Shown: in pieces, positions 3,040 to 60,485 of the stretch | How positions within the stretch are numbered: position 1 is the stretch's first letter | Layout of the letters: the number at the start of each line of letters is the position of its first letter | Virus record (IMG/VR): IMGVR_UViG_3300028399_000007 | Coordinates: 1-62,076 of that record | DNA: 62,076 bases | Source: a virus | Taxonomy: Duplodnaviria; Caudoviricetes | Direction: 5' to 3' (one strand) | Made by a program: the position numbers and the translations under genes | Notes under the pieces: model-generated | The model's database searches: none | What the model saw: only the letters and a program-made list of their open reading frames with translations | Told to the model about the DNA's origin: nothing

Positions 3040-3069
3040 ACAACCAAAACAACCAAGAGGGCTAGGGAA

Positions 3070-33846: not shown

Positions 33847-33847
33847 A

Positions 33848-35309: not shown

Positions 35310-35327
35310 AAAACCGACAAAAATCTT

Positions 35328-36746: not shown

Positions 36747-37140
36747 AATCAATGACTTACAAGCGTCACCAGTTAAAAACCGTCACCCATTTAATCACCC
36801 AATTTTTTTGTCGTAACGTACTGAAAAATATAGTTAATCACCCAGTCACCCGTTTTATACTAAATAAAAAATATATAAAAAATAGGGGATAGGGATAGTA
36901 GGGGATCCCTGATCCTCGTCTATATTAAAGTTTGTGCTGTTTTTGGGAAAAAAGGGTGACAGCCGCAACACTATGAATTAAAAAGCAAAATACGATTTTT
37001 CAAAAATGCGTGGCACCCGAAAAACGGGTGCCAAATGGCCAAAAGTGTGAAAAAGTGGGTTTTCGGCCATTTTGGCCATACTGCTAGAAAAAATCTAGTT
37101 TGGCGTTTTTTCACACTTTGCCAAAAAAAATTGGTGACAA
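36747..37140. other. divergent noncoding control region (candidate origin or packaging site)
   Basis: IHF-type site 36747-36759, repeated TCACCC/GGTGAC, AT-rich tract, inverted repeats. Confidence 0.45.
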
Positions 37141-37141
37141 G

Positions 37142-37170
37142 TTGCAAGCCAATTTGAATCGCGCTATGGT
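37142..37170 (+). promoter_or_regulatory. sigma70-type promoter
   Basis: TTGCAA-N17-TATGGT. Confidence 0.5.
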
Positions 37171-37176
37171 TGCACC

Positions 37177-37310
37177 CATGGGCTAGTTACAACACATGGT
37201 TTGGTTTACAATAGGTTTTGTAGCACCAACCATCTGTTGACTAGCCCTCGCAGTATGTGCTGTGCTATGAAAAGCCCCTTGCACCTACTGTGTGCTTGGG
37301 GCTTTTTTTA
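37177..37310 (+). ncRNA. candidate sRNA or attenuated leader of primase
   Basis: ~70-nt hairpin GGGCTAGTTA..TGACTAGCCC, then terminator AAGCCCC..GGGGCTTTTTTT. Confidence 0.45.
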
Positions 37311-37323
37311 TGGGGATTGGTTT

Positions 37324-39432: not shown

Positions 39433-39877
39433 TATTTGATATTATCACCTATTAAGATCGTGCCATGTAGTGAGAAAGTAACGTCAGGATCGAGCGATCC
39501 ACTTTGCCGAATGTGCCAATAAGCGGGAGTGAGACAGGTCCGTTGACAGGGACAAAGAAATGTATCGAGACAAGCCGATTTATAGTAACAGTGGTGATGA
39601 TCGAACCATGTTCTATTATAGTGACACGCCACGAGATTGAGACACCCTTATTGTCAGTAACACTAACTGTGATCGAAACACCTATGCGCAGCGTACCATC
39701 GAGGTGGATTGAAACATAATTAACGATAGTAACATGCTGCTTGATTGAAACGGAGTACATAACAGTAACACGGTGCTTGATTGAAACACTGTACACGATA
39801 GCAACACGTTGGTTGATTGAGACACGTCCTTTGATAGTTCGGATACTGAGATCGACCCATACACTTTGACAGTAGCA
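39421..39877 (+). repeat. TIGR-like dual-repeat array 1 (~12 units of 36 nt)
   Basis: Alternating GATYGARACA and GAYAGTRACA 10-mers separated by variable 8-nt spacers, 18-nt phase. Confidence 0.85.
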
Positions 39878-39900
39878 AAGCAACAGAGGAATTTTGAGAT

Positions 39901-40125
39901 ATGCACGTTGATCCCATAATTGACCAACACGCGCCAGATTGCCTGTTAGTGCAGTTCCACGCGATCTGTTGCAAGTGGGAGAAGTGCGTTTATTTCGGAA
40001 CTAGGAAAGAAAAAGCCGGGTATTATCGTGAATTGAAGCAGTTCTATAAAAAACACGGATTGCCTGATGACACGATAGCCCCGCCTTGCAATTGTGGTAG
40101 AAAAATATGCTATCTATTAACTTGA
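39901..40125 (+). CDS. small Cys/His-rich protein between arrays
   Basis: ORF with six Cys in CxxxxHxxCCxxxxC and CxC clusters. Confidence 0.4.
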   Translation: MHVDPIIDQHAPDCLLVQFHAICCKWEKCVYFGTRKEKAGYYRELKQFYKKHGLPDDTIAPPCNCGRKICYLLT

Positions 40126-40138
40126 AAGAGGTACCAAG

Positions 40139-40492
40139 ATGCGTAGAAAAAAGAATGCCGAGACTGCGGAAAGTACGTTATTTTCAGAAACACAAACGCG
40201 AACCGTTTACACTGTGGAGATCAAGAACCCGTACAACGTGTGGGAGGACGTGAGGAACCCCAGCTATATGGTGCCTGTGATCCCCAGTAGCGTTGCATCC
40301 TGTAATGACAACCACCCGCTGATGAAGCATCACAGGATGTTGACCTATGATCAGGCCATGGCGATAGCATGGTCGATCAAGTCGCAAAACGAGCCTTCTG
40401 TGCGCGGCGTGCGGATCGTGGGCTATGAAATGGAATGGTCCGTCAAGGCCAATAGTGCGCCGGTCTATGAGCAGGAGATCGGCGGAGACTAG
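40139..40492 (+). CDS. hypothetical protein between arrays
   Basis: AGAGG RBS. Confidence 0.65.
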   Translation: MRRKKNAETAESTLFSETQTRTVYTVEIKNPYNVWEDVRNPSYMVPVIPSSVASCNDNHPLMKHHRMLTYDQAMAIAWSIKSQNEPSVRGVRIVGYEMEWSVKANSAPVYEQEIGGD

Positions 40493-40498
40493 GCTAAT

Positions 40499-40885
40499 GA
40501 TCAGGCAGGGTGTCTGAGTGTACCGGAACAGATAATCGAGTCGCGAAGATGTATGGTAACAATGGCAATGATCGAGGCAAAAAAAGATAGCGTGCCGTTG
40601 AATATGATCGAGCCTTTGAAAGCGATTGGAACACGTGAATTGAGCTAAACAACCGTTTAGATAGTGACACAGTTTATGATTGAAACAGGTGCCCCGATAA
40701 CGACAGGCGCGAAGATTGAAACAAAAAATCCGATAGCATCACAATCCCGAATTGAAACGCAGAAAGATAGTGCACCACCGAATACGATTGAAACAGTGGA
40801 AAAGACAGTATCAGAAACGACGATTGAGACAAAAAGGCAAATTGCACCACTATCGCTGATCGAACCACCACCAGTTATTGCAACG
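40499..40885 (+). repeat. TIGR-like dual-repeat array 2 (~11 units of 36 nt)
   Basis: Same alternating repeats (GATTGAAACA at 40678, 40714, 40786; GATAGTGACA at 40660) with 8-nt spacers. Confidence 0.85.
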
Positions 40886-40904
40886 GATATGGGGAGTGCT
40901 ATTT

Positions 40905-41282
40905 ATGGGTTATGGGTACATCGGCCAACCGTACAGCCATGAGGATGAGGCGGTGCGGCAGAATCGCTATGAGTTTGCATTGTCATTTGTGGCTGCCAAG
41001 ACACGTGCCGGGGAGATAGTCTATTCCCCTATCGTGCACTTCCACAATGCGGCTGTAGAACACAACCTGCCGGAAGGTGGGGCGATCTGGCGGCCTGTGA
41101 ACAGGGCTATGCTATTGGCCGCCAACAGGTTAATCGTGTTGGCCCTGCCCGGCTGGTCCTGCTCGCCGGGGCTTGAGTTTGAGATGAAGCTGGCGCGTGA
41201 GCACAGGATCCCGATCAAGTACGTGATCCCTGATCACAAGATGCAGACCCAGCTAGGCGTGGAACTGATCACATTTGATTAA
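40905..41282 (+). CDS. DUF1937-like / nucleoside deoxyribosyltransferase-like protein
   Basis: YIGQPYSH, VYSPIVHFH, LPGW..SPG..E. Confidence 0.7.
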   Translation: MGYGYIGQPYSHEDEAVRQNRYEFALSFVAAKTRAGEIVYSPIVHFHNAAVEHNLPEGGAIWRPVNRAMLLAANRLIVLALPGWSCSPGLEFEMKLAREHRIPIKYVIPDHKMQTQLGVELITFD

Positions 41283-41473
41283 CCCTTGTCAAATGGATCA
41301 GCATCGACCGTTTCAAGCGCCAGCGCCTCAACCTGCTTGGCATAATCCAGCATTTCCTCAATAGCATCCACGTCGCTGTAGTAAGCCGTTTCCTCGTCCA
41401 GCACAGTGCTGGCATGCGCCTTGATTTCCTGTGCCAGCTTGGCAATGGCTTTGATATGTTGTGTTGATCTCAT
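41279..41473 (-). CDS. hypothetical protein
   Basis: Part of coupled minus-strand early cassette. Confidence 0.6.
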   Translation of the reverse strand: MRSTQHIKAIAKLAQEIKAHASTVLDEETAYYSDVDAIEEMLDYAKQVEALALETVDADPFDKG

Positions 41474-41700
41474 CGGCCTGTCCCCATTACAACAACATAG
41501 ACCCCGCTATGATCGCGATCTTGAAACACCTGCAAAACACGGCGACCCTTGAGAGTGCGTGCAATTGCATCGGGCGGGGTTTCAAGTATGTCGTATCGTC
41601 CGCGTAAAAATCCACGTACATAAGATATAACAGTATCCCACATGCTAGCCTCATATTCACCAACTTCTATGTTGTTGACATACGTCTTTACCTTGTACAT
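41470..41700 (-). CDS. hypothetical protein
   Basis: Part of minus-strand early cassette. Confidence 0.6.
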   Translation of the reverse strand: MYKVKTYVNNIEVGEYEASMWDTVISYVRGFLRGRYDILETPPDAIARTLKGRRVLQVFQDRDHSGVYVVVMGTGR

Positions 41701-41712
41701 TTCAATACCCTG

Positions 41713-41901
41713 TTATTCAATGATTGCGATTGAAAGGATCTTGTAATCCTGTTTACCGACCGGCGCGGTGATCACGGACTGCTCGATAAATGCCTTGGTG
41801 TAAAACTGCGCATCACTTGGCATGGCATTGTGGATAACGTCATATTCGATGGATCCGGTACCGTTGCCCGTAAGGATCTCTTTTTCAATATGGATTTCCA
41901 T
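41713..41901 (-). CDS. hypothetical protein
   Basis: GAGGA RBS; CsrA-type hairpin at 41921-41938. Confidence 0.6.
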   Translation of the reverse strand: MEIHIEKEILTGNGTGSIEYDVIHNAMPSDAQFYTKAFIEQSVITAPVGKQDYKILSIAIIE

Positions 41902-41945
41902 GATATGTCCTCTATGTTAGTGCGCCGTCCTTAGCGCGATAGTCA

Positions 41946-42350
41946 TTACAGCCCCCACTTGGCATCAGTGTAGCCGGGCAACATCGTGATGAAGCGATCC
42001 TTGATCTTGTTCATCAGTTTATAGGCCCGTGAGTTTTCATAATTCTTGGTTTCACAGGATTGGTAATCGAGGCACTGGACCAGTTTTAGAAGTTCAACAG
42101 CACCCATCTTGGGCACGCGACGGAATTTAAGATCATCCTCAGTGATCACCACCCGTTCATAGCCGCCAAAATACTCCTCAGCGCGTCCGGGGTAGCGTGC
42201 GCACACACTGGCATAATTCTGATCCGTCAGAACATCTGACAGGTAGTTTGCCGTTTGCAGGGGATCAGGGTACTCACCTTGCAAGCCCATGTTGATATAG
42301 TTGACGACGATTGCCTTGATCGTCATGTCCGTAACAATAAATGCGCTCAT
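41946..42350 (-). CDS. conserved phage hypothetical protein
   Basis: Start-associated motif; MSAFIV..N..SV.ARY..CLDYQSCE..W pattern. Confidence 0.75.
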   Translation of the reverse strand: MSAFIVTDMTIKAIVVNYINMGLQGEYPDPLQTANYLSDVLTDQNYASVCARYPGRAEEYFGGYERVVITEDDLKFRRVPKMGAVELLKLVQCLDYQSCETKNYENSRAYKLMNKIKDRFITMLPGYTDAKWGL

Positions 42351-42395
42351 TTTCCTAGCCCTCTTGGTCAGTGCGCCATCCTTGGCGCAGTGGTG

Positions 42396-42578
42396 TCAAA
42401 CTTCGCAATAAACTGCGGCGTCGCTGGGATCGATCATGGCGGTTTCGCCGTTGCCAAGTTCAACCTCAACAACCAGTTCGCCGTAGTAATCCTTGCCGTA
42501 GTCGAGAATGGTGCCGGGTACCAGTTGGTCAGTCCAGCCTACGTTAACGGTCTTGCCCTTTGCGTAGTAGTTGCTCAT
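42396..42578 (-). CDS. hypothetical protein
   Basis: Start-associated motif and promoter upstream. Confidence 0.7.
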   Translation of the reverse strand: MSNYYAKGKTVNVGWTDQLVPGTILDYGKDYYGELVVEVELGNGETAMIDPSDAAVYCEV

Positions 42579-42623
42579 TTTCCTAGCCCTCTTTGTTGTG
42601 GTGTTTATTTAACCTTCACTTAC

Positions 42624-42651
42624 AGTATAGCGGCTGGAATCAGGATTGCAA
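42624..42651 (-). promoter_or_regulatory. sigma70-type early promoter
   Basis: TTGCAA-N16-TATACT. Confidence 0.7.
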
Positions 42652-42736
42652 GGTTTTTTATTGCATTTTTTCAAAAATTTTTCCATTAAAATACTTATAT
42701 TAGAATATGCTAATATACGGATTTTTGGCCGTGGAC

Positions 42737-42764
42737 TTGCAAGGCTTTCCACGGTATGTATAAT
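42737..42764 (+). promoter_or_regulatory. sigma70-type promoter for large ncRNA
   Basis: TTGCAA-N16-TATAAT. Confidence 0.7.
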
Positions 42765-42769
42765 TGCGC

Positions 42770-43570
42770 CCGTGCTCGGGGCAGAAAGCCGTGGCAACAC
42801 GGTGCAAGGGGCGAAGCCAACATAGTCCCGCTTCTCACGAAGTAAGCCCGAGCAAGCCGAGTCCGCGGGGCATGCCCCGGCCTCCGTTCCTGACGGGGGA
42901 TAGCGGCGAGTGATTAGGGCTGTGTTAGGCGTAATAATCAAAGGCCATGCCTCATCGTGAGGTGAGGCGCAGCACGAAAGCGAGTCGGGATAGGACAAAG
43001 GGTAGGTCGGAAGTCCGAGCGGGCACGCAAGGGCGATGGCCAGTCAATACGGTCGTGGTCGAAGGATCACAATGGTCGTTGAAGACAGCCGATTACCGGG
43101 CACGGGAAAGGTACGAGGCGTGTGGCATACTGTATCTTCACGGATACGGCACCACTGATCGGCGCACGTCTTGGTTGGTAGCGTATGTAGCTCAGTTGGT
43201 AGAGCGCATCCCCTGAAAGGATGGTGTCGCTGGTTCAAATCCAGCCTAACGCGCATATTGTGGGAATATGTAAAATGCAAAGACGCCGATCAGCGTGTTA
43301 TGAAAGTGACCTAATCCTGTGGCCTTATGGCAACACAGGGTTCCCAAGGCCGCAAGCTGAGGGAACTTCGTCAGGACACGCACTCAGGTCGTTTAGCGGC
43401 GAACTGGGGTAGTTGAGCGGCGGAGTAGTAACACGGCATAGGTCTATTGCCTGACCTGTAAACAAAACGGCAGTCATGTCTGCTTACGACAGTGCGCTTT
43501 GCGGCTGGCGTGGACAACCCGGCAACAACAGGCCGCACCCTGTTGGTACTCTGGGGAAAGGGCAGATCAA
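42770..43570 (+). ncRNA. large structured noncoding RNA with embedded tRNA-like element (GOLLD-like candidate)
   Basis: No credible ORF; many stems and GNRA loops; bounded by promoter and terminator. Confidence 0.55.
43181..43253 (+). tRNA. atypical tRNA (anticodon loop CCTGAAA, nominal TGA)
   Basis: GCTC/GAGC D arm, CATCC/GGATG stem, GCTGG-TTCAAAT-CCAGC T arm; two acceptor mismatches, short variable loop. Confidence 0.6.
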
Positions 43571-43598
43571 ACCCGGCTTAATCTCAGCCGGGTTTTTT
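43570..43598 (+). terminator. intrinsic terminator
   Basis: CCCGGCT-loop-AGCCGGG followed by T6. Confidence 0.8.
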
Positions 43599-44036
43599 AT
43601 TGACTTTGAAAACTTGCGTGATCCGCAACCTGCGATCTTTTGCCCAATCCTGCACATTACCGCCTATTACTGCGAAGCAGTGATCAACGGTGAAACAGAT
43701 ATATTTTTCGCCCTTGCTTAGTGCGGCGGTGATTGTTTTCGGCGTGTAGCTGCTTGAACAGTTTGGCTTATAAAAACGCTTGTAAAGATTGGACGAGCAG
43801 ACAGGTGGCTTTGCAGCGATGTTGTAATAACTGCAACCAAACTCCGCAACTGCCTGCATGATGATCTTTATGTCTGTGCTGCAACGATTACGCCGCCCCA
43901 ATTTTTTCAAAATGAGGTGCGCCTCCGCATAGCTAACGCCACACACCAGCGATACGGCGACAACAGAGCAGTCGTTGCGCTCATTCTTAAATCCGGTGGA
44001 ATCTCGCTGTTCCAAGGTTTTGGCGTACAGGTTCAT
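43584..44036 (-). CDS. papain-like peptidase-fold phage protein
   Basis: NDCSVVAVS..H.FAV..G...DW Cys-His-Asp pattern. Confidence 0.55.
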   Translation of the reverse strand: MNLYAKTLEQRDSTGFKNERNDCSVVAVSLVCGVSYAEAHLILKKLGRRNRCSTDIKIIMQAVAEFGCSYYNIAAKPPVCSSNLYKRFYKPNCSSSYTPKTITAALSKGEKYICFTVDHCFAVIGGNVQDWAKDRRLRITQVFKVNKKPG

Positions 44037-44037
44037 G

Positions 44038-44154
44038 CTACACCTCACCCTGTCGGTAAACCTTGATCCGCGCGGCGGTGCGCTCTACCTTGGCCTGTGC
44101 TACGTTGATTGCAACGCCAGCCAAAACACAAAAAGCTACGAGTACATATTCCAT
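44038..44154 (-). CDS. 38-aa membrane peptide (not in ORF track)
   Basis: MEYVLVAFCVLAGVAINVAQAK.. directly after start-associated motif. Confidence 0.6.
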   Translation of the reverse strand: MEYVLVAFCVLAGVAINVAQAKVERTAARIKVYRQGEV

Positions 44155-44207
44155 TTTCCTAGCCCTCTTGGTTAATGCGCCATCCTTGGCGCTGGTTTGT
44201 CTTTATA

Positions 44208-44432
44208 TTAAAACGCAAATCCTTTTGAACTTGCGATCTCAAACGGCGCTTCCTTGGCCCGGCGTTCAAAGTATTCCTCGACCGTGAAGTTTTTGGCGAG
44301 GAACCTTGCGAATTTCCTCATGCTGCCCTTGCGATACTTGAAGCGTGCGACAAACTGGCGCTCACCGTTTTCGCTACGGTACATGAGGCAGTACCCGTCA
44401 AAAACAAAGTTGGTCATGTTGAAATTGCTCAT
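44208..44432 (-). CDS. conserved phage hypothetical protein
   Basis: Start-associated motif; FVARFKY..FL.KNFTVEEYF. Confidence 0.75.
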   Translation of the reverse strand: MSNFNMTNFVFDGYCLMYRSENGERQFVARFKYRKGSMRKFARFLAKNFTVEEYFERRAKEAPFEIASSKGFAF

Positions 44433-44465
44433 TTTCCTAGCCCTCTTTTTTGTTGGTTCAAGGTA

Positions 44466-44626
44466 AGTATAGACGCTATGAAATATATTGCAAGGATTAT
44501 TTTCAAAAAATTGCGTATATAAGTATTTAATAATACTGGGTTTTGTAAGTTATTGATTTTAATTGTTAAAAATAATTGTTAAAATGTAATAAAAACCCTT
44601 GCATTTTCCGCCCGGTGGTGTAAACT
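44466..44626. promoter_or_regulatory. divergent early promoter pair with IHF-type site
   Basis: TTGCAA-N16-TATACT (-, 44466-44493); TAAGTTATTGATT 44546-44558; TTGCAT-N16-TAAACT (+, 44599-44626). Confidence 0.65.
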
Positions 44627-44669
44627 GTAATTGTAGTTTGAAAAACCAACAACCAAGAGGGCTAGGCAA

Positions 44670-45074
44670 ATGGCTTACATGAGTCAAGAGAAAAAGAAAA
44701 TGCTTGCGCCGCAAATCAAGGCGGTGCTTAAAAAGTACGGGGTCAAAGCCACGATCTCCGTATCCCACCATTCAACGCTGGTCGTTACCCTGAGAGAAGG
44801 GCCGTTTGATATTATCGCTGAGTACAACAAGATCGCCGAAGAAAAAGGCAAGTACGCTGCTAGCTGGTATATGGACGTTAATCCTTACTGGATTGACGAT
44901 AACCATGCTGGTGAAATCCGTGACTTCCTTAATGAGTTGAAGGATGCCATGAACGGCAAGGGCGCTGAGGTCAAGAACCACAATAACAGCAATCCCATGA
45001 CCGACTACTTTGACGTAGGTTGGTATATCCGCATTTCTGTCGGACGCTACGACAAACCTTACAAAGTTATTTAA
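44670..45074 (+). CDS. conserved phage hypothetical protein
   Basis: Start-associated motif; MAYMSQEKKK..DYFDVGWY. Confidence 0.8.
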   Translation: MAYMSQEKKKMLAPQIKAVLKKYGVKATISVSHHSTLVVTLREGPFDIIAEYNKIAEEKGKYAASWYMDVNPYWIDDNHAGEIRDFLNELKDAMNGKGAEVKNHNNSNPMTDYFDVGWYIRISVGRYDKPYKVI

Positions 45075-45110
45075 TCAACCGCGTCAAGGACGGCGACAAC
45101 CAAGAGGGCT

Positions 45111-45380
45111 ATGAAAATGAGTAACAAGGTAAACACTGGTATCAGACTTATCGCCAAACAGGCGGCGGATTTGCAGTTTCGTGCAAAGCGCCTAGCTGAC
45201 GAAAACATGCAATGGGATTGCAGTTTCAAGGGTACAGAAGCCGCCCAAGAGTACAATCGCCTCATGGACGAATATGAAGCATTGCAGGCGGTAGCTGATC
45301 GTGCTGGTGAGTACGTGGCGTTTATGACCGCCGTTGATTTTATCCTTGGAGGATTTGAGAACCAAAACCAAGAGGGCTAG
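45111..45380 (+). CDS. hypothetical protein
   Basis: Start-associated motif. Confidence 0.7.
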   Translation: MKMSNKVNTGIRLIAKQAADLQFRAKRLADENMQWDCSFKGTEAAQEYNRLMDEYEALQAVADRAGEYVAFMTAVDFILGGFENQNQEG

Positions 45381-45383
45381 AAA

Positions 45384-45641
45384 ATGGAATACGTTGATTG
45401 CACGTTCTGTGACCGCACGGGTACCGATCCGGAAGATGACAATGAACTGTGCCCGATCTGTTACGGCGAGGGCGCAGTTGCCGCGACACATGGTGTCGAA
45501 GAGTATAGTTCTTTCGGCACTTGCGAGCATTGCTTGCGTAATGGGCCGGTGATCGAAACCATGACCTTCTACGTCATGGGCAACGGCATAACCAAGAACA
45601 AATTAACGTCTTGCCTGTGTATTGACTGCTACCGGGGATAA
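45384..45641 (+). CDS. Zn-finger protein
   Basis: Four CxxC motifs; start-associated motif. Confidence 0.7.
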   Translation: MEYVDCTFCDRTGTDPEDDNELCPICYGEGAVAATHGVEEYSSFGTCEHCLRNGPVIETMTFYVMGNGITKNKLTSCLCIDCYRG

Positions 45642-46341
45642 TCAAGATGGAAAAAAGCAAAATACAACAGATTGCAACCATGGCGCATGTCATGAAAAAC
45701 CCAAAAAAGATACTTGTGTGCGCCACATCATTGATTTGATCAACGGCGAGGAACTTACTGATCAAAATCTGGCCGAGTTATACAAGTTTTTCATGCCACC
45801 GATCCCCAAGGCCAAGAAAACGCCCGAACAGTGGGTAGCCACTGCGATTGGGGACAAGGACGTGCGCTTTTATTTGAACTATGTGTACGTCGATAAGGAA
45901 TGGGTCATTGGTTCAAACGGCCATCATCTGCATCGTGTCCACAATGACAATAATCTCGAACCCGGTTACTACCTGCCGTCGCCTGCCGGGGGACAGGGTA
46001 TTGTCTTGGCTGAACCGCCTGACTTCGCTACTTACCCACAGGTCGAGAGCGTGATCCCGGCAAGCAAAAAGGGCGGGGTAAAATTTACTGTTGACGATCT
46101 TGAGATCAATAAAGAACAGTTGGCGGCTGGTAGTTCAAAAATGGTCGATGTTTACAAGTTCCCGAAGCGGTTGATAGGTGATGAACGCATATCGATCAAT
46201 TATGGATACCTGAATGATTTGATCGCCATACCCGGTTTCGATGATGCCGAACTATGCGTTTACCCAAAAAAGGGCTACGTGGCACTATGGTCAGGCAAAC
46301 TGTGTCTAGGCGTTATCATGTTGCGCAGACCAGCGGGGTAG
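45622..46341 (+). CDS. beta-sliding-clamp-like protein (start uncertain)
   Basis: DVRFYLN, SNGHHL, YPQVESVIP, VIM resemble DnaN middle/C domains. Confidence 0.5.
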   Translation: MTATGDNQDGKKQNTTDCNHGACHEKPKKDTCVRHIIDLINGEELTDQNLAELYKFFMPPIPKAKKTPEQWVATAIGDKDVRFYLNYVYVDKEWVIGSNGHHLHRVHNDNNLEPGYYLPSPAGGQGIVLAEPPDFATYPQVESVIPASKKGGVKFTVDDLEINKEQLAAGSSKMVDVYKFPKRLIGDERISINYGYLNDLIAIPGFDDAELCVYPKKGYVALWSGKLCLGVIMLRRPAG

Positions 46342-46345
46342 CAAT

Positions 46346-47116
46346 ATGTTCAATAACATAGCAATACCAAAGAACTTGCAGGATTTTTGCAAGGCACGTG
46401 TTGAAGTCAACAAATGGATCAACGAAGCACAGGCTTGTATCAATCACGCAACCGAAGCGGTCAAGGGGATCTTGCCCTATGATCTGCCCTATACCGCCAG
46501 CCTGAGAGAATCTCCCAAGCGTATTATGCAGGAGGTGGACATACGCTTATGGCGGCGTGCGTTTGATCTGACGGGCTATGCGCAGATCATGGATGCACAG
46601 GCACAGAAAGAATTTAACCAAACGCTTGAGAACGATCCGCCTGAATTCAACGAGGACAATATACGTTCTATCTTCCTAAGCGCCGCGCAGGATTCAGAAG
46701 CCATGTTCAAGCGCGGCATCGTCAACGTGTTCAAATACCTGTCAAATGAATACAAGGCCAACAGTAAGGATCCTTTTGTGGTCGGCAAAAAGTGCATCAT
46801 GCGCGGCATGTTCAGTAGCTGGGTCGGCTACCCGTCGCTCAACTATGGCCACGCCTCTGATCAGATCAACGATATTGATCGCGTATTCAAGACCTTGGAC
46901 GGCAAGCAGCACCACCCGCGCGAACTGGAAGCCAAGATCAATGAGGCGTCCAAGGCAGGCCAAGACTTTGAGGACGATTATTTCAAGATCAAAGCATTCG
47001 CTAATGGCAACATGCACATCTGGTTCAAGCGCCGTGATTTGCTCGAAAAAGTAAATACCATTATTGCAGAATGGTACGGGGATCATGCGCTGGCCGATGG
47101 CACTAACAGCATGTAA
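46346..47116 (+). CDS. DUF4942-like protein
   Basis: DIDRVF..LDGK, YFKIKAFANGNMHIWFKR.DL. Confidence 0.7.
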   Translation: MFNNIAIPKNLQDFCKARVEVNKWINEAQACINHATEAVKGILPYDLPYTASLRESPKRIMQEVDIRLWRRAFDLTGYAQIMDAQAQKEFNQTLENDPPEFNEDNIRSIFLSAAQDSEAMFKRGIVNVFKYLSNEYKANSKDPFVVGKKCIMRGMFSSWVGYPSLNYGHASDQINDIDRVFKTLDGKQHHPRELEAKINEASKAGQDFEDDYFKIKAFANGNMHIWFKRRDLLEKVNTIIAEWYGDHALADGTNSM

Positions 47117-47208
47117 CTATATGCTAATATATTTGCAATTAAAATAATTGTTGCAATCTTTTTTGCTTTGTAGTCTAATATCTGTAAGTTAACCAAGAGG
47201 GCTAGATT

Positions 47209-48054
47209 ATGTACGAGATGACACAAACCCATTCCACCCCGATGCCGGACGATCTGATCCGGCGCAACGCACCCAGCGTATTTGCTACGCAACCCTACCA
47301 CGAAGTAAGCGACCGCTATGCCTTCGTACCCACGATCAACATCATCGACGCCTTGCGCGGCGAGGGCTGGTTGCCTGTTGACGCCAGTCAGAAGCGCGTG
47401 CGCTTGAAAGATCGCCGGGAGTTCACCAAGCACTTGGTGCGGTTCCGCCGCTTGGGTGATGATATTCAGATCGGCGATTCGGTCATGGAACTGTTACTGA
47501 CCAATTCACACGACCGCGCCAGTGCCTTCTCCCTGCATGCCGGTGTCTTTCGCATGGCCTGTGCCAATGGCATCGTGATCGCGGATAGCACGCTGGCGAA
47601 GATCAAGGTGCGCCACAGCGGCGACGCGGCCAAGGAAATCATCGAGGGCAGTTACCATGTCATAGATGAGGTGCCCAAGATCGCCGCCGAGGTGGAGGAA
47701 ATGCAGCGCATTGATTTGACCCAGCCCGAGCGCCGTATCTTCGCCGATGCTGCTTACAAGCTGGTCGCGCCTGAGTTGAAGGAAGGGCAGCGGATGATCA
47801 CGCAACAGGACAGCATCCTGTCGCAGATGTTGGCTCCGCGCCGCCGCGATGATAACGGCACTGACTTGTGGACTACCTACAACGTGTTGCAGGAGAAGGT
47901 GATCCGTGGCGGTGTGCGCACTGCCAAGGTGTCTAACGGCAAGGTGCGCCATAGCACTACCCGCGAGGTGCGCAGCATTGACCGCGACATTAAGCTGAAC
48001 AAGGCGCTGTGGGAGATGGCCATGCAGATGAAAGACCTTAAAACCGCTGCATGA
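47209..48054 (+). CDS. DUF932/DUF945 family protein
   Basis: SDRYAFVPT, KHLVRFR, NSHD, FRMACANG, DLWTTYNVLQE, LNKALW. Confidence 0.85.
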   Translation: MYEMTQTHSTPMPDDLIRRNAPSVFATQPYHEVSDRYAFVPTINIIDALRGEGWLPVDASQKRVRLKDRREFTKHLVRFRRLGDDIQIGDSVMELLLTNSHDRASAFSLHAGVFRMACANGIVIADSTLAKIKVRHSGDAAKEIIEGSYHVIDEVPKIAAEVEEMQRIDLTQPERRIFADAAYKLVAPELKEGQRMITQQDSILSQMLAPRRRDDNGTDLWTTYNVLQEKVIRGGVRTAKVSNGKVRHSTTREVRSIDRDIKLNKALWEMAMQMKDLKTAA

Positions 48055-48129
48055 CGGCTGATAATAGGCGCAGGGAAGCGTCGTTTTTATAACAATCTAA
48101 AATAAAGACGGCCAAAAACAGACAAGATA

Positions 48130-48453
48130 ATGGACGATATAGACTTAAATCGGCACGTGGCTATTGCTATGGGTGCTTATGACGAGTACGTGCGGAACCG
48201 GGTTTTGTATGACGACCCGGTACTTGATTTTGGTGATTGGTTACGTCTCCCAAGTTTTAACTATGCAGCCCCGTCACGGCAGATCACAATGTTACAAGCA
48301 TTGTGGACTAGTGTTAGCGCCACACTAACATGGAGTAACGGCAATTTTTCAATCAAGAGCAAAAATTTTACGTATTCTGATCACAAACTTGAAAAAGTTA
48401 TCGCTCGTACATACCTGCATATAAAAAACGGAGATAAAAATGCCATTTATTGA
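48130..48453 (+). CDS. hypothetical protein
   Basis: ORF track; operon-like spacing. Confidence 0.55.
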   Translation: MDDIDLNRHVAIAMGAYDEYVRNRVLYDDPVLDFGDWLRLPSFNYAAPSRQITMLQALWTSVSATLTWSNGNFSIKSKNFTYSDHKLEKVIARTYLHIKNGDKNAIY

Positions 48454-48628
48454 ATTTATTATGACTTATTGGGACTGGTATTTAGCAATAGGTGCAGTTT
48501 TTGGGGTTTACGAATCTTTAGTTGCAGTATATAAAACTGGAACACCTGTTCTTTTATTACCAATAATTTTTTTATTGGCAGTGGTTTTATGGCCAATTTT
48601 GGTCGTTTCATACATAGCAAAAAATTAA
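48440..48628 (+). CDS. small two-TM membrane protein
   Basis: Hydrophobic segments; GGAG RBS. Confidence 0.55.
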   Translation: MPFIEFIMTYWDWYLAIGAVFGVYESLVAVYKTGTPVLLLPIIFLLAVVLWPILVVSYIAKN

Positions 48629-48635
48629 TAAAGGT

Positions 48636-48896
48636 ATGCAAATGACAAAATACACTGATCTAAAACCGCCTTTTGATCCACGTTTGGACGTGGATTCACA
48701 ACGATATGTTGTTTATAACGTGGAAGAAAAACGTGTCATGCGTAGTACGCAAGATATTTCACAAGCCGTGCGCATTTGTGTGCGGCTAAATGGTGACAAG
48801 GAAATCGCTGAATACGCCATTGCCGACAAGGATGCAAATACTTACCTTAGTGGCTGGCGCAAATTGCGGGAGGTGAAAAATGACTACAGCCAATGA
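48636..48896 (+). CDS. hypothetical protein
   Basis: Overlaps start of next gene. Confidence 0.6.
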   Translation: MQMTKYTDLKPPFDPRLDVDSQRYVVYNVEEKRVMRSTQDISQAVRICVRLNGDKEIAEYAIADKDANTYLSGWRKLREVKNDYSQ

Positions 48897-49710
48897 ACTA
48901 GAAAGTGCCAGCCGGATCGCCAATAGCACGATCAAGCAAATCAAGGAACGCGGTACTTGTAGCCGTGAAGAAATCCGGTTCCTTGTGGATGCCTATTACC
49001 AAGTACAAAAGATGCGGATCGCACTGGGTAATCAGATATTTGCATTGACTGAATCCAATGAACCGCATGAGATCAGTGACTGGCTGTTCAGCCAGTTCAA
49101 ACTGATCGAAAGCCAGATCAGCCGATCCCTGAAAGCATTTTGTGAGACCACAAAGCCCGGTCAATGGCTATTGTCAATCACGGGCATAGGCCCTGTGTTG
49201 GCGGCCAATTTTCTTGCCCATCTTGACGTGACAAAATCAGAAACAGCGGGCGGATTCTGGCGGTTCGCCGGGTTGGATCCAACACTGGAATGGAAGAAAG
49301 GTTGTAAGCGTCCGTTTAACGCGCGGCTTAAAACGGCTTGTTGGAAAGCGGGTGAATCATTTTGCAAGGTACAGAACCGTGATTCGGACGTTTACGGCAA
49401 GGTCTATGCTGAGCGTAAGGCACTGGAAATACAACGCAATGACAGGCTTGAATTTGCCGATCAGGCGAAGGAAAAACTGGAGAAGTTTAACATCGGCAAG
49501 GACACGGATGCCTACAAGCATTATGCTGAGGGTAAGCTGCCGCCTGCGCATATCGACCAGCGTGCCAAGCGTTATGCGGTTAAGCTATTCCTGTCACATC
49601 TGCATCATGTAATGTATGAATGCGAGCATGGGCGCAAACCACCCAAACCCTACGTCATAGAACACATGGGGCATGCGCATTACGTCGCCCCGCCAAACTG
49701 GCCATTGTAA
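48880..49710 (+). CDS. TasA-like Nop-domain RNA-binding protein (IS110 C-terminal-like, no nuclease domain)
   Basis: LVDAYYQVQKMRI..NQ, WLLSITGIGPVLAA, FWRFAGL, FNARLK, HIDQRAKRYAVKLFLSHL; no RuvC/DEDD or HNH domain. Confidence 0.8.
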   Translation: MTTANELESASRIANSTIKQIKERGTCSREEIRFLVDAYYQVQKMRIALGNQIFALTESNEPHEISDWLFSQFKLIESQISRSLKAFCETTKPGQWLLSITGIGPVLAANFLAHLDVTKSETAGGFWRFAGLDPTLEWKKGCKRPFNARLKTACWKAGESFCKVQNRDSDVYGKVYAERKALEIQRNDRLEFADQAKEKLEKFNIGKDTDAYKHYAEGKLPPAHIDQRAKRYAVKLFLSHLHHVMYECEHGRKPPKPYVIEHMGHAHYVAPPNWPL

Positions 49711-49721
49711 GGAGGGCTATC

Positions 49722-50114
49722 ATGGCTGCCAAGCCTAAAAAAATCGGTACCAAGATTGATCACCTGTTTGCCATGAGCGAAACAATCTCAGAACGTGAAA
49801 AAGAATTGAAAGAACTGAAATCAAAACGTGCTGAACTGGAAGCTGATATAATCAAGCACTTGCACACTGAAAACGCGACCGATGCCGGTGGTAAAATGGG
49901 CAAGGTCAGTATCAGCATCACCAAACATGCCAACGTGAAAGATTGGAAAAAATACTATGAGTATATCCACAAGCACAAGGCATTCGATCTTCTGCAACGC
50001 CGTGTAAGTGACAAGGCTTACTTTGATCGCGTTGAGGAAGGTGAAAAGATCCCCGGCGTGGAGGTTTACACGCGGGAAAAACTGAACCGATCACGGCGAC
50101 GTGAAAAGGTTTAA
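49722..50114 (+). CDS. conserved replication-module protein
   Basis: Coiled coil; DW..Y..I...AFDLLQRRVS..IPGV. Confidence 0.7.
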   Translation: MAAKPKKIGTKIDHLFAMSETISEREKELKELKSKRAELEADIIKHLHTENATDAGGKMGKVSISITKHANVKDWKKYYEYIHKHKAFDLLQRRVSDKAYFDRVEEGEKIPGVEVYTREKLNRSRRREKV

Positions 50115-50156
50115 TTAACCGGGCAGTAGCCCATATCAACAACAGGAGCAATTATA

Positions 50157-50399
50157 ATGCCGAGAAAGATCGATCCCAACAACGTAAAAGCACGTATCAA
50201 GGACAACAAGACCACTGCTGCCGCAGCCAAGAAAACCCTGCTATCCATGCTGGCGGCTGTGACCAAGGATTATGGTGGCAATGATGTGGATGTAAGTGAA
50301 ATGCGTGCAGAGCTTTCCACGTTTATCAAGTCCATCAGGGCGATCCGCAGCGATATGGACAAACTGGCCGCTATCGAAGCCGCTAGCGGCGATGACTGA
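50157..50399 (+). CDS. hypothetical protein
   Basis: AGGAG RBS. Confidence 0.65.
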   Translation: MPRKIDPNNVKARIKDNKTTAAAAKKTLLSMLAAVTKDYGGNDVDVSEMRAELSTFIKSIRAIRSDMDKLAAIEAASGDD

Positions 50400-50427
50400 T
50401 CGCAACGACTAACAGGAGGCTATTTAT

Positions 50428-51219
50428 ATGGCTGCAAAGAAAAAGACCAGTAAGGCCCTGAGCGTTGACTGGCGCAAGGAACTGGCCGCCAAGGCCAGTA
50501 AAATGAGTGCCAAGGGACGTATCAAGGCCGCTGGTGGCGAGTATATCAGCACTAAGGGCGGCAAGTTCTCTATCGGTGACAGGATCATCGGTGACAGCTT
50601 CCCCGCCGTTGTGATTGGTGCGGTATATGAAAACTCATGGTTCGATTCAAAGTTTGTCGAAGGCGAACCTTCCTGCCCTGCATGTTTCGCTATCGCGTAT
50701 GATGAGGAGGATCTAGCCCCTCACCCCGATAGCCCTGTGCCGCAAGCTGAGACGTGCGAAGAGTGCGAAAAGAACCAATGGGGATCATCAGAGGAAGGGC
50801 GTGGTAAGGCGTGCGGTAATCGCTTCCGCTTGGCCGTGGTCCACGGCGATGATACCAAGGCCAACGCCAGCGAGATCGAAGTCAAGGGTCTGCGGTTAGC
50901 GCCTACCAGCATTAACAATTTCCGATCCTACGTGGCGGAACTTGAGGCCCGTGGTGACTTGGAGCTTGTACAGGCGGCCTGCAATATCTACTTCGATCCT
51001 GAAAGCAAACAGGCGGTGCCGCCGATCTTGTTTGAGTTTATGAACGAGATCACGTCCGACAAGGCGCTCAACGCATTGGTGTCCAAGTGGCCTGATGCGG
51101 AAAAACTGCTGGAACAGCCTTATGACAAGGCGAACTATAAGCCGCCCGGTCGTGCGCGTGGCAAGAAAAAAACGACGAAAAAGAAAACCAGCAAGAAACG
51201 TGCAAGCAAGTTTTCCTGA
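50428..51219 (+). CDS. putative ssDNA-binding protein
   Basis: PACFA..CEEC..NQWGS..GKAC motif; upstream of polymerase. Confidence 0.6.
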   Translation: MAAKKKTSKALSVDWRKELAAKASKMSAKGRIKAAGGEYISTKGGKFSIGDRIIGDSFPAVVIGAVYENSWFDSKFVEGEPSCPACFAIAYDEEDLAPHPDSPVPQAETCEECEKNQWGSSEEGRGKACGNRFRLAVVHGDDTKANASEIEVKGLRLAPTSINNFRSYVAELEARGDLELVQAACNIYFDPESKQAVPPILFEFMNEITSDKALNALVSKWPDAEKLLEQPYDKANYKPPGRARGKKKTTKKKTSKKRASKFS

Positions 51220-51235
51220 TTTGCTTGCACGATCC

Positions 51236-51262
51236 ATGCCCCGGCGGTGTCGGGGCATTTTT
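51236..51262 (+). terminator. intrinsic terminator
   Basis: ATGCCCCG..CGGGGCAT followed by T run. Confidence 0.7.
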
Positions 51263-51279
51263 ATATTTGAAGGTCAGGC

Positions 51280-54051
51280 ATGCCAAAAATACCGTTAGCT
51301 GTTATAGACTTTGAGACGCTGCGCATTGAGCCGCGCCCTGATTACCCACCAGAACCAGTGGGCCTAGCTGTGTTGGAGCCCGGTAAGCGCCCTGTGTACT
51401 TGGCATGGGGACACCCTTTGAAAAATAACTGTACTTTCGATGATGCTTACAAAACTTTGCATCGGATTTATGAAAGGTATTGTGTCGTTATGCACAATGC
51501 CGTTTTTGATCTTGAAGTCGCTGAAAAGTTTTTTGATCTGCCGCTAGTGCCGCCACATGGGTTTTGTGACACGATGCTTGAAGCATTTTTGTACAACCCG
51601 CGTTTCCCTGATATGAAATTGAAAAATCTGGCGGATAACCTGCTGGGTATGCCGCCTGTTGAAGAACAGCGATTGCACGAATGGATCCTGAGTCATGTTT
51701 TTACAAGTCAAAAAAGTGGCAAGGGCAGCATAAAAATATGGGATCACAGACCAAAAGGGCTGTATGCCATACCGCCGTCACAAGCCGGTGGGTTCATAGG
51801 CTATGCACCCGGTGACTTGGTGGGCAGATACGCCAAGGGCGACGTGGTGCGCACTAAGAAACTTCACAATCTTTTCATGCCCAAGATCAAAAAACTAGGC
51901 ATGATGGAACAGTGGGATGTTGAACATCGTGTTTCTATTAAGGCACTGGAAATGTCGCGCAGCGGTGTGCGTATAGACGTTGATAATCTGGCACCTGATC
52001 TTGAAACCGCCAAGAAAAAACTGGCTACTGCCGAAAGGAACGTTTACAAAAAATTGGGTGAGATAAATCTTAACAGCCCCAAGCAAAAAATAGAAGCATT
52101 TGAAAGCAGGGGTTTGGTGTCTGAATGGGAGTACACTGACAAAGGAAACCCAAAGACAAGTATAGACTCACTGATGCGCGTGTGTACGGATAAAAAACTT
52201 GTCAAGGATTTGAACATATATAGCAAGTACACCAAGATCATAGGCACCTATATGCAGCCTTGGCTGGCGTCTGCATTGAAGAACAACGGGTATTTCTACC
52301 CATGGTATAACACGATAAAGGGGGAAAATGATCGTGGTACCTATACAGGCAGGTTCAGTTCTAATTTTCAACAGGTGCCGCGTCGCGTCGAGGACGTATC
52401 ACTAAAAGGTTTACCATTCCTGCGCAACTACGTTATAGCAGATAAAAAATCGCACGTGCTATTTAACCGTGATTTTTGTTTTTCTGATGATACAGAAGTT
52501 TTAACAGATCGTGGTTGGATGTTATTCAAAGATTTAGGTAAAAATGAGCTAGTCGCTCAGTATAAAAATGGTGTTATCAGTTATGCCAAACCGCTTGCTT
52601 ATCAAAAAGAAAGATTTACAGGTAAAATGGTGCATATACATAGTCCCAAAAGTTGTAATATGTTGGTGAGTCCAGATCACCAATGCCTGCAACTGGACTA
52701 CAATAACCGGCCTGTGAAAATACGTGCCGTAGGTTATAGGCTTGGTCATTATAAGCAAGTTGTATCAGGCATAGTTAAAAATAAACAGTCCATTGATATT
52801 TCAATTGACTTGTTAAAATTATCTGTAGCAATACAAGCCGACGGCAAAATACTTTTTCAAAATACCGGCGTAAAAATTTCTTTCTATTTGAAAAAGGAAA
52901 GGAAAATAAAACGGCTTGAAGCATTGTTAAATGCGCTCGATATTCCTTACATAAAAAAAGCAATGGTAAGTAAAAAAGGCTTTTTCAGTTTCCTTTTTTA
53001 CATGCCTGATGACGTCAACAAAATTCTTGATACAGGCACAAAACAGTTTAAGCGTAGTCTGCTAAAACTTTCTTATGAAAACAGGCTGCTGTTTTTGAAA
53101 GAGCTTGGATATTGGGATGGATCAATCATTGGTGAAAGTTGGCAATACTTCAATACAAATTTAGCTAGTTTTGATTTACTGCAAGAAATGTGCGTCATAA
53201 CGGGTGTCAAATCAGTATTGAAGTACATGAAACGCGATGAGGTTAGAAAATGCTGCGGTTTGTTATATATGACTGTTAAGCACGCCGTTGATACAAAAAT
53301 GTTTAGCAAGGATTTTGTTGAATATGATGGCTATATGTATTGTGTCACTATGCCGCAAGGAACGGTTATTGTTAGACGTGGTGGCAACGCATTTATAACA
53401 GGACAATGTGGCCAAGAAGTACGGATCCTTGCGCATTTTGAAGATGGTGTGCTGTTATCCGCATTCAATAAAGATCCGGAATTGGACGGGCATAGTTTTG
53501 TCAATGATCTAGTAACCGAACTAACAGGCATTGACTACGGACGCTCTGCAATCAAAGCGTGCAATTTTTTGATCATCTATGGTGGCGGTGTTTACGCACT
53601 ATCACAAAATTTAGGGATCTCCTATGATCAGGCAGATGAGATATACAAGGCGCATGGTGATGCGCTTGTCGGTTTAGGTGAGTTGAAAAATGAGCTAAGG
53701 TTATTGGCACGCAGGGGAGAGATGTTTAAGACTGCTGGCGGTAGATGGTATGACTTTGAGGAAGGTTTTGAATATGTTGCGTTGAACACGTTGATACAGG
53801 GCAGTGCTGCTGATCATAGTAAACGTGCGTTATTGAATATATCCGATATGATAGAAACAAAAGGATATGACGCTAGGCTCATACTAACTGTGCATGACGA
53901 GTTTATGATCAGCGGCCCTGCAAGATGCAAAAAGAAATTTATGACGGATTTTCGTGAAGCAATGGAATATGATGAATTGTTTGATCTGCCTATGTTAACT
54001 GATGGCAAGATCGGCAAGTGTTGGGGGAAGATGGAAAAAGTTAACTATTAG
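51280..54051 (+). CDS. family A DNA polymerase with 3'-5' exonuclease and intein
   Basis: DFET, HNAVFD, TGRFSS, DF[intein]CGQEVRILAH, K..NF..IYG, IQGSAAD, VHDE. Confidence 0.92.
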   Translation: MPKIPLAVIDFETLRIEPRPDYPPEPVGLAVLEPGKRPVYLAWGHPLKNNCTFDDAYKTLHRIYERYCVVMHNAVFDLEVAEKFFDLPLVPPHGFCDTMLEAFLYNPRFPDMKLKNLADNLLGMPPVEEQRLHEWILSHVFTSQKSGKGSIKIWDHRPKGLYAIPPSQAGGFIGYAPGDLVGRYAKGDVVRTKKLHNLFMPKIKKLGMMEQWDVEHRVSIKALEMSRSGVRIDVDNLAPDLETAKKKLATAERNVYKKLGEINLNSPKQKIEAFESRGLVSEWEYTDKGNPKTSIDSLMRVCTDKKLVKDLNIYSKYTKIIGTYMQPWLASALKNNGYFYPWYNTIKGENDRGTYTGRFSSNFQQVPRRVEDVSLKGLPFLRNYVIADKKSHVLFNRDFCFSDDTEVLTDRGWMLFKDLGKNELVAQYKNGVISYAKPLAYQKERFTGKMVHIHSPKSCNMLVSPDHQCLQLDYNNRPVKIRAVGYRLGHYKQVVSGIVKNKQSIDISIDLLKLSVAIQADGKILFQNTGVKISFYLKKERKIKRLEALLNALDIPYIKKAMVSKKGFFSFLFYMPDDVNKILDTGTKQFKRSLLKLSYENRLLFLKELGYWDGSIIGESWQYFNTNLASFDLLQEMCVITGVKSVLKYMKRDEVRKCCGLLYMTVKHAVDTKMFSKDFVEYDGYMYCVTMPQGTVIVRRGGNAFITGQCGQEVRILAHFEDGVLLSAFNKDPELDGHSFVNDLVTELTGIDYGRSAIKACNFLIIYGGGVYALSQNLGISYDQADEIYKAHGDALVGLGELKNELRLLARRGEMFKTAGGRWYDFEEGFEYVALNTLIQGSAADHSKRALLNISDMIETKGYDARLILTVHDEFMISGPARCKKKFMTDFREAMEYDELFDLPMLTDGKIGKCWGKMEKVNY
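52477..53406 (+). mobile_element. intein in polymerase motif A (310 aa), ending in Gly-Gln
   Basis: CFSDDTEVLT..SPDH..MYCVT..ITGQ|C; LAGLIDADG-like AIQADG and GYWDGS. Confidence 0.85.
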
Positions 54052-59609: not shown

Positions 59610-59755
59610 GGCAGCCTGCCGGGCGAAAACCGCAAACGCGGCCCCTCAGTCTGGAACGCTGTACCGGAGTTGCACGCCGGTATGCACCGGGATACCCCGG
59701 CTCCGAGTGCGCCAGCGTTGGGTGAATGCATAAGTAGTCCGGCAGGTTGCCGCCA
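59610..59755 (+). ncRNA. structured RNA closed by 15-bp stem and ending GCCA
   Basis: GGCAGCCTGCCGGGC pairs with GTCCGGCAGGTTGCC (two G-U). Confidence 0.45.
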
Positions 59756-59771
59756 TTTAGTGAGTAAAAAA

Positions 59772-60485
59772 ATGAGTTTAGAACATTTATATAAATTTGA
59801 TTGGTACGTGTCACATCAAGCGTGGCTCAACAAAGAAGGCTATATGGCCCATGATCATCGTGGGACTAAGCCGCAAAAAGCTGATCTGCGCGGCACTGAT
59901 CTGCGCGGTGCTGATCTACTAGGTGCTAAGCTGTGCGATGCCAATTTACGTGATGCCAATTTACGTGATGCAAATTTGCGTGGGTCTAATCTGCGCAATG
60001 CCGATCTAAGCTGCGCCAATTTTAACAATGCTGATCTGTGCTTTGCCAGTCTATACGACACAAATTTACACTATGCTAATCTGCGTCATGCCAATCTAAG
60101 CTACGCTAATTTGTGCGGCGCTGATCTGCGCCATGCTGATTTGCGCGGCGCTGATCTGCGCCATGCTGATTTGCGTGATACCGATCTAAGCTACGCTAAT
60201 TTGTGCGGCGCTGATCTGCGCTATGCTGATTTGCGCGGCGCTGATCTGCGCCATGCTGATTTGCGTAACACCATCGGTAACGGACGTGAGATCATTACAA
60301 TCTTAACAGATAAATGGATAGTTAATATAACAAAAGAATTCATGACAGTTGGTTGTGAGCATTACAGCATTAAAGACTGGATGAGCTTTGATGATGATCG
60401 TATTTCTAAGATGGACCCCTGCGCACTTCATTGGTCGCGTATCTGGAAGCCGATTATTAAACAAATAATAGAGGCAACCAAATAG
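59772..60485 (+). CDS. pentapeptide repeat protein
   Basis: A(D/N)Lxx repeats, C-terminal VGCE..W domain; internal ~90-bp duplication. Confidence 0.9.
   Translation: MSLEHLYKFDWYVSHQAWLNKEGYMAHDHRGTKPQKADLRGTDLRGADLLGAKLCDANLRDANLRDANLRGSNLRNADLSCANFNNADLCFASLYDTNLHYANLRHANLSYANLCGADLRHADLRGADLRHADLRDTDLSYANLCGADLRYADLRGADLRHADLRNTIGNGREIITILTDKWIVNITKEFMTVGCEHYSIKDWMSFDDDRISKMDPCALHWSRIWKPIIKQIIEATK

Follow-up and report, generated by a model that had tools for sequence, protein, structure and literature searches.

We show here that the 62,076-nucleotide (nt) stretch of Caudoviricetes virus DNA held as IMG/VR record IMGVR_UViG_3300028399_000007 (the window, analysed at its full length) encodes a genuine TasA, that is, a nuclease-less, Nop-only Tas protein of the TIGR (tandem interspaced guide RNA) systems, and that the same record carries two dual-repeat TIGR arrays, which are real and are the sole arrays within it. 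The protein is an ordinary member of its family, and the one unusual trait of the system is that the guide units lie some 8 kb off in another gene block. The best overall explanation, to which we give a probability of about two in three, is that a functional TasA of the dual-repeat class acts in trans with the distant arrays on targets outside the phage. The TIGR-Tas family, its mechanism and its proposed biology are already published and there is no new kind of system here, since TasA, dual-repeat arrays, the Tyr/His processing dyad and repression have all been described (Faure 2025, PMC12045711; Xu 2026, bioRxiv 10.64898/2026.09.09.750476; PMC13421893; here and below, these works are cited for those parts of their texts available to us). 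What the window provides is a natural example of a TIGR effector and guide arrays that are physically, and probably transcriptionally, apart.

The tasA gene (48880–49710, + strand) is a 276-amino acid (aa) open reading frame (ORF) whose ATG is preceded by a strong Shine–Dalgarno sequence, GGGAGGTG; the product is a solo coiled-coil and Nop-domain TIGR-associated protein, and its translation carries the motifs GIGPVLAA (residues 102–109), WRFAGL (127–132) and AKRYAVKLFLSHL (229–241). Its identity as TasA follows from family and fold matches to Tas proteins that start after the nuclease domains of TasH and TasR. On the NCBIfam profile NF052498 (TIGR_Tas_endo, 'TIGR-Tas system RNA-guided endonuclease', a curated equivalog), whose cut-off is 100 bits, the protein reaches 191.5 bits, with TasA residues 32–245 matching profile positions 1–214 of 215, while phmmer against the PDB finds TasR (9mty, E 1.9e-14) and TasH (21kl, E 2.1e-8), and in a tblastn search 88% of the query aligns at 26% identity to tasH from Salicola phage CGphi29. 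Pfam returns Transposase_20 (PF02371) alone, at residues 96–135 (24.9 bits; cut-off 21.3), and within PHROGs the full-length match is to phrog_4285, annotated 'transposase' (E 1.5e-50). An AlphaFold2 model was built from a 44-sequence alignment (L036, which has stop codons in its match translation, was left out) and is well determined, with a predicted local distance difference test (pLDDT) score of 91.0 and a predicted template modelling score of 0.87. The top ten Foldseek matches of this model in the PDB are TasH and TasR cryo-electron microscopy chains only (E 3.8e-8 to 1.8e-6), the IS621 and ISCro4 bridge recombinases ranking after them. Pairwise alignment with VIA-align gives the same order: TasH at Z 19.6–19.8 (224 residues aligned, root-mean-square deviation (rmsd) 3.5, covering TasH residues 63–309), TasR at Z 18.8 (194 residues, rmsd 2.4 Å, covering TasR residues 111–322), ISCro4 and IS621 at Z 13.1–13.6, and archaeal Nop5 (1nt2_B) at Z 7.5 over 147 residues, the last within the noise range for helical proteins.

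These alignments begin past the nuclease domains, from residue 63–66 in TasH (after the HNH domain) and from residue 111 in TasR (after RuvC), and neither Pfam nor NCBIfam finds an HNH or RuvC domain in TasA. In the model the coiled coil consists of helices 29–58 and 64–88, which align to the Tas coiled coil, with about 28 residues ahead of it. No insertion sequence (IS) ends surround the gene; inverted repeats there are short and scattered, and none brackets it. A first-pass annotation, made from the letters of the window alone, had described this ORF as a TasA-like Nop-only protein with a coiled coil and the motifs quoted above, having no DEDD/RuvC N-terminus, no HNH insertion, no IS ends and no adjacent array, and had called for structure prediction; with the prediction made, each of these statements is borne out, the last by the finding that all units sit within arrays roughly 8–9 kb upstream. 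TasA has 4,239 full-length homologs of similar size, retains all 22 invariant positions of the family, and is encoded by the only tas gene in the record. Some relatives carry insertions: the tasA matches of L035 (10001–12025) are split by about 1.27 kb, the L032 gene (9890–11002) is a 370-aa ORF with extra sequence between its two matched halves, in the L034 protein about 58 aa are inserted behind the GLD motif, and L010 and L099 have inserts of about 45 aa.

TasA also retains the residues associated with guide maturation. The metal-independent processing of precursor TIGR RNA (pre-tigRNA) by TasH of phage CGphi29 (SpTasH) uses Y289 and H296 (PMC13421893), which fall on Y258 and H265 of TasA in a BLASTP alignment, and we assign these two residues as its processing dyad. 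Position 265 is His in 44/44 aligned sequences, and position 258 is Tyr in 34/44 and Phe in the other 10. The loop bearing the dyad has low pLDDT in the model, consistent with a flexible loop. Since such a Y/H loop is a hallmark of dual-repeat systems that stem-loop systems do not have (Xu 2026, section 10), the class of TasA agrees with that of the arrays.

The arrays, both on the + strand, occupy 39527–39886 (array 1, about ten units of 36 nt with one 35-nt step at 39850) and 40534–40893 (array 2, about ten more degenerate units, the last overlapping the start of the DUF1937 gene at 40878). Each unit is GATTGAAACA-N8-GATAGTAACA-N8 (10+8+10+8 nt; consensus GATtGAaACA-N8-gATAGtAACA-N8), and the total is about 20 units, so that of the earlier claim of two distant arrays with some 23 guides the two arrays stand and the count comes down. 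The motif GATYGARMC matches the window 16 times against 3.02 ± 1.71 expected (0 of 100 shuffles reach 16), and 13 of the 16 matches sit inside the arrays in a 36-nt register. A motif-free periodicity detector reports 36-nt periodicity solely at 39580–39888 and 40622–40863, with no hits in 20 shuffles, its remaining match being a 15-nt coding repeat near 60 kb; and a weight-matrix scan of the window finds 19 units at or above 17 bits, all on the + strand and all within the two arrays, a result that speaks to the absence of units elsewhere and not to their existence, the matrix having been trained on those array units. Neither the detector nor the matrix scan finds an array or guide unit in or around tasA. 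A scan with Rfam returns two tRNAs and nothing else. The whole of array 1 is spanned by a reverse-strand (−) open frame of 143 aa (39452–39883), which shows no stop in 120 codons and no family match; stop-free reading was considered as a feature of the arrays and rejected as inconsistent, array 1 having the one open frame (−) and array 2 none.

Both arrays lie among genes of the replication operon, in the order primase, array 1, two small ORFs, array 2, DUF1937. The stop codon of the primase-like gene (DUF3854 and DUF5906) comes 95 nt before the start of array 1, the two small + strand ORFs (39901–40492; 74 and 117 aa) match no family and have no conserved counterparts at other loci, and no terminator-like site is seen after either array. 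From the last position of array 2 to the start of tasA the distance is 7,986 nt, and the arrays lie upstream of the gene, on the same strand, at 7,986–9,353 nt. Between them stand a block of several small reverse-strand genes (41279–44771) whose start codons carry a conserved 20-nt motif, a tRNA-Ser gene (43181–43254, +) and a strong terminator-like hairpin (43569–43595, +), and these intervening features argue against co-transcription of the arrays with tasA. That the layout is not a mis-join is supported by a 41,143-nt Logan contig, another assembly of the same data (the only DNA run in which the sequence occurs, probably that of the source sample, with no RNA run listed for it), which covers 37000–52000, from the arrays through tasA, with 0 differences.

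Immediately upstream of tasA are three small co-oriented ORFs (48130–48896, +; 107, 62 and 86 aa), themselves preceded by a terminator-like hairpin (48067–48082). These ORFs and tasA are likely an accessory cassette, because a partly syntenic phage (L120) lacks tasA at that position, its gene order being DUF932, a Gam-like gene, a 263-aa protein, DNA polymerase, exonucleases and a helicase. Downstream, the first-pass placement of the gene at the head of an operon for a single-stranded DNA-binding protein (SSB) and a polymerase proves half right: DNA polymerase A is there (51280–54051, +; Pfam), but the supposed SSB, a 263-aa ORF at 50428–51219, matches no SSB family. Searches for synteny returned three loci with a DUF932 query, L120 alone being partly syntenic and ending before the array region, and one distant locus with a primase query. 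Among 143 loci, the Gam-like gene of L120 was the one exception to a lack of conserved partner genes near tasA or arrays.

The split layout is rare in the loci sampled. In 78 of the 96 distinct related tas loci obtained from two collection scans, tas is within 1 kb of a 34–38-nt periodic array; and in the subset used for comparing layouts, the 47 loci that have 1 kb or more of flanking sequence to either side of tas, the array lies within 1 kb in 42, only at 2–4 kb in two, and is not found in two. The remaining locus (L032) has an array only at 9.3 kb. In its full record, G001, there is one tas, and the sub-arrays, about five in number and alternating with small ORFs, come no nearer to it than 9,259 nt. 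Considering that the TasA of G001/L032 is not sister to that of the window, detachment was an independent event in the two phages and so arose at least twice.

We consider it probable, on comparative grounds, that the window arrays are the guides of the window TasA. This pairing is favoured because the record contains a single tas, because protein and arrays agree in class, because the same repeat pair stands beside a tasA in all five other loci where it was found, and because G001, a second phage, likewise has its only tas at a distance from its arrays. The exact R1-N8-R2 pair (R1 and R2 being the two repeats of a unit) was found in four viral contigs and one contig of a metagenome-assembled genome (MAG), and at 5/5 of these loci one TasA homolog (48–56% identity), encoded on the strand of the array, ends about 40–150 nt upstream of it; two of the viral contigs (G003 and G005) do not differ at this locus, which leaves four independent cases. 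Divergent TasAs use that repeat pair, since the proteins flanking it fall in at least two tree branches, and compatibility of the window TasA with the window arrays is plausible. A notion that repeat type co-varies with TasA clade, with AT-rich repeats in the window and L032, was ruled out, the two TasAs not being sisters. In the MAG contig (L145, Eubacteriales, oriented 735–2543), TasA (56% identity) has after it an array in which GATTGAGCCA is the prevailing form of the first repeat, intermediate between the AT-rich repeat of the window and the GC-rich GAGCGAGCCA of most relatives.

We suggest the following mechanism. The arrays would be transcribed with the replication operon, and TasA, expressed from its own small cassette, would bind the array precursor in trans and, by means of Y258/H265, cut inside GATTGAAACA, which is the better conserved of the two repeats and probably the edge repeat, releasing 36-nt tigRNAs. 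A coiled-coil dimer of TasA, guided by the two 8-nt spacers of a pair, could then bind a 16–18-bp DNA site on both its strands and leave it uncut, and such binding would block transcription or replication at the site. Binding in place of cleavage is expected because TasA has no nuclease domain, and by homology with MbTasA, for which reversible RNA-guided repression has been demonstrated experimentally (Xu 2026, section 12). The targets would belong to the host or to competing mobile elements and not to the phage; the silencing of host defence genes or competing elements, which the first-pass annotation had put forward, is among the functions already proposed for these systems (Xu 2026, Discussion).

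A number of observations weigh against this explanation. Compared with a tas-adjacent array that has the same repeats (L138), the window arrays show more degeneracy: identity to R1 is 8.0–8.6 of 10 positions as against 9.4, and to R2 6.9–7.9 as against 9.0, and 14 of 20 units, as against 23 of 27, have an intact R1 skeleton (L137 and L140 were left out of this comparison, fixed 36-nt walks having lost register there). Selection on the arrays may be relaxed, or some of their units may have lost function. The window TasA does not group with the TasAs beside its own repeat pair; it groups with L003 and L063 (support 96/81 and 92/93 in two trees), whose arrays have GC-rich repeats ending in CCA and not ACA, and no spacers are common to the window arrays and the other same-repeat arrays. 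Moreover, TasA can evidently persist without arrays: the record of L025 (G002), a complete 215.8-kb phage with terminal repeats, has one tasA (143644–144384; 48% identity, with Phe in place of the catalytic Tyr), and across its entire genome the periodicity detector, which stem-loop arrays would escape, reports no dual-repeat array. A promoter and terminator scan of the window gave counts not above those of shuffles, so that its transcription units are drawn from strand layout alone, and the record is about 76% complete. As to targets, none of the 124 distinct loci retrieved (1.24 Mb) contains an exact site (0 hits; control mean 0.07); in public collections, sites of 16–18 nt are expected by chance (Xu 2026, Discussion).

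Several of these points would fit better if the parts were uncoupled, the arrays being decaying remnants of a TIGR locus that has lost its tas, and tasA a separate acquisition that is guide-less, uses other guides or has an array-independent role. The greater degeneracy of the arrays, the absence of the cassette at the same position in L120, the place of TasA outside the clades that flank its repeat pair, with GC-rich repeats in its nearest relatives, the retention of tasA in the complete array-less phage, and the atypical separation itself (array and tas within 1 kb in 42 of 47 loci) all lean this way. Even so, we regard uncoupling as unlikely. The chance presence of two unrelated TIGR components in one 62-kb phage is unparsimonious, there is no tas remnant beside the arrays and only a single tas match in the record, the box skeleton is retained in 14–15 of 20 units and the 36-nt register is held across both arrays, TasA keeps its 22 invariant positions together with the Y/H dyad, and the split recurs in G001, there with about five long arrays.

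A second possibility is that TasA and the arrays act on the phage itself, either through regulation of its lifecycle at its own promoters or through guide processing that cuts the primase–DUF1937 polycistron and so tunes early expression. The embedding of the arrays in the replication operon with no terminator-like site behind either would suit this, and lifecycle regulation is among the roles that the Discussion of Xu (2026) proposes. Against it stand the spacers. A scan for 16-nt composite spacer-pair sites, taking both half-site orders, both spacer pairings and gaps of 0–3, found 4 and 3 hits in the phage at two or fewer mismatches, below the mean of 7.1 in re-paired controls, and on these counts self-targeting was rejected for the sequence at hand, about 24% of the genome being missing from the record; the same counts also weigh against the explanation that we prefer, as no target for its guides was found there. 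We hold regulation of the phage itself to be quite improbable.

Finally, a truncated or degenerate IS110-family transposase fragment, left with its C-terminal Transposase_20 part and having no RNA-guided role, would account for the PF02371 match, for the 'transposase' label that relatives bear in PHROGs and some source annotations and for the IS621 and ISCro4 structural neighbours, but it is effectively refuted by the NCBIfam scores (27.7 bits for the IS110 model NF033542 against a cut-off of 140, the Tas model being well past its own), and the far higher scores of Tas structures, the thousands of full-length homologs of like size, the lack of IS ends and of an N-terminal DEDD domain, and the TIGR arrays that adjoin relatives in 78 of 96 loci all speak against it. 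What TasA has in common with the IS110/IS621 bridge-RNA recombinases is a homologous RNA-binding Nop-like domain; their DEDD/RuvC-like catalytic domain is missing from it.

Among known systems, the dual-repeat TIGR-TasA systems, for example FpTasA of Flavonifractor plautii (PMC12045711), come close to that of the window. They share with it a phage-borne, solo coiled-coil and Nop protein with no nuclease, 36-nt units with two alternating repeats of about 10 nt and two short spacers, and the lack of a conserved accessory gene. Unlike them, the window has its arrays thousands of nucleotides upstream, inside the replication operon and cut off from tasA by reverse-strand genes, a tRNA and a terminator, and its repeats are AT-rich and end in ACA, not CCA, in arrays that are more degenerate. 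SpTasH (PDB 9w04, 21kl) is the best structural match and, besides the aligned dyad, has 8-nt spacers in common with the window (Guan 2026, in the text accessible to us), but it carries an N-terminal HNH domain that the window TasA lacks. TaTasR (9mty; Faure 2025) shares the coiled-coil and Nop core and a C-terminal EHxGHxxYxxPPxW stretch, and differs in its RuvC domain. MbTasA and catalytically dead TasR are nuclease-free repressors that bind target DNA and repress reversibly (Xu 2026), and it is by analogy with them that we ascribe this mechanism to the window TasA; unlike it, they belong to stem-loop-array systems and have no Y/H loop, whereas the window system is dual-repeat and has one.

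The split has a parallel in CRISPR systems, where orphan arrays distant from the cas genes act in trans; the effector family is unrelated and the guide architecture is another. We found no account of detached TIGR arrays in the literature: the available texts of Faure (2025) and Xu (2026) do not use 'distal', 'distant', 'orphan' or 'in trans' of arrays, although Fig. 1d of the latter and table S1 of the former may hold some. The layout, if the parts are paired, would imply that TasA acts in trans, and it has a practical consequence in that searches of 5-kb neighbourhoods can score real TIGR systems as array-less. The suggestion that the separation would hide this system from neighbourhood-based searches holds for the 5-kb flanks of Faure (2025), which would miss the arrays, but not for the extraction of up to 10 kb in Xu (2026), which would include them. 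Array-less tas loci are treated as an open question in the Discussion of Xu (2026), as is the biological role of these systems. With its 276-aa protein and about 20 guides, the window offers a compact test case for whether a dual-repeat TasA can process its own guides from an unrelated operon transcript.

It is formally possible, though we think it rather unlikely, that the arrangement reaches further: that TasA works fully in trans and guides are interchangeable between co-infecting elements, TasA loading or sequestering the tigRNAs of another phage; that guide excision cuts early mRNA and couples guide maturation to the control of replication genes; and that detached arrays explain some of the array-less loci. 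Interchange is conceivable because an identical repeat pair is common to at least five other phage or MAG loci whose TasAs are about 50% identical, and cutting of early mRNA because the arrays sit within the primase–DUF1937 polycistron.

Other features of the window may be mentioned. The motif of about 20 nt at the starts of the small genes, CCAAGAGGGCTAGGAAAATG, has eight copies in the window, four on the + strand (2726–2757, 3043–3074, 45090–45121 and 45358–45389) and four on the − strand (42345–42368, 42573–42596, 44149–44172 and 44427–44450). Its final ATG is the start of a small ORF in at least seven of the eight (2753, 3070, 45111 and 45384 on +; 42350, 42578 and 44432 on −), and it resembles an operator or translation-initiation element that small early genes have in common. 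The large terminase subunit (30331–33873, −; 1181 aa) has matches to Intein_splicing (residues 871–1156) and LAGLIDADG/Hom_end (272–350) and probably holds one or two inteins. The DNA polymerase A gene has an insert of about 330 aa (about 52435–53421) between its exonuclease and polymerase parts, which is missing from the L120 ortholog (62–63% identical), matches no Pfam family and starts with a Cys-containing, intein-like motif (unconfirmed). Beside the small terminase, at 34599–36630 (−), are genes for a Mom-like DNA modification protein, a ParB-like nuclease-domain protein (35331–35927) and an HNH endonuclease; unlike in the published tasParB loci (Faure 2025), the ParB-like gene is on the other strand from tasA, 3.6 kb from array 1, and not operonic with tasA. 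A pentapeptide-repeat protein (59670–60485, +; PF00805, E 6.7e-42) accounts for tandem repeats of 15, 30, 45 and 90 nt at 59.85–60.3 kb, and seven tandem repeats of 66 nt (22 aa) lie at 16887–17376, within a 506-aa ORF of the structural module (16611–18128, −) that matches no PHROG or Pfam family.

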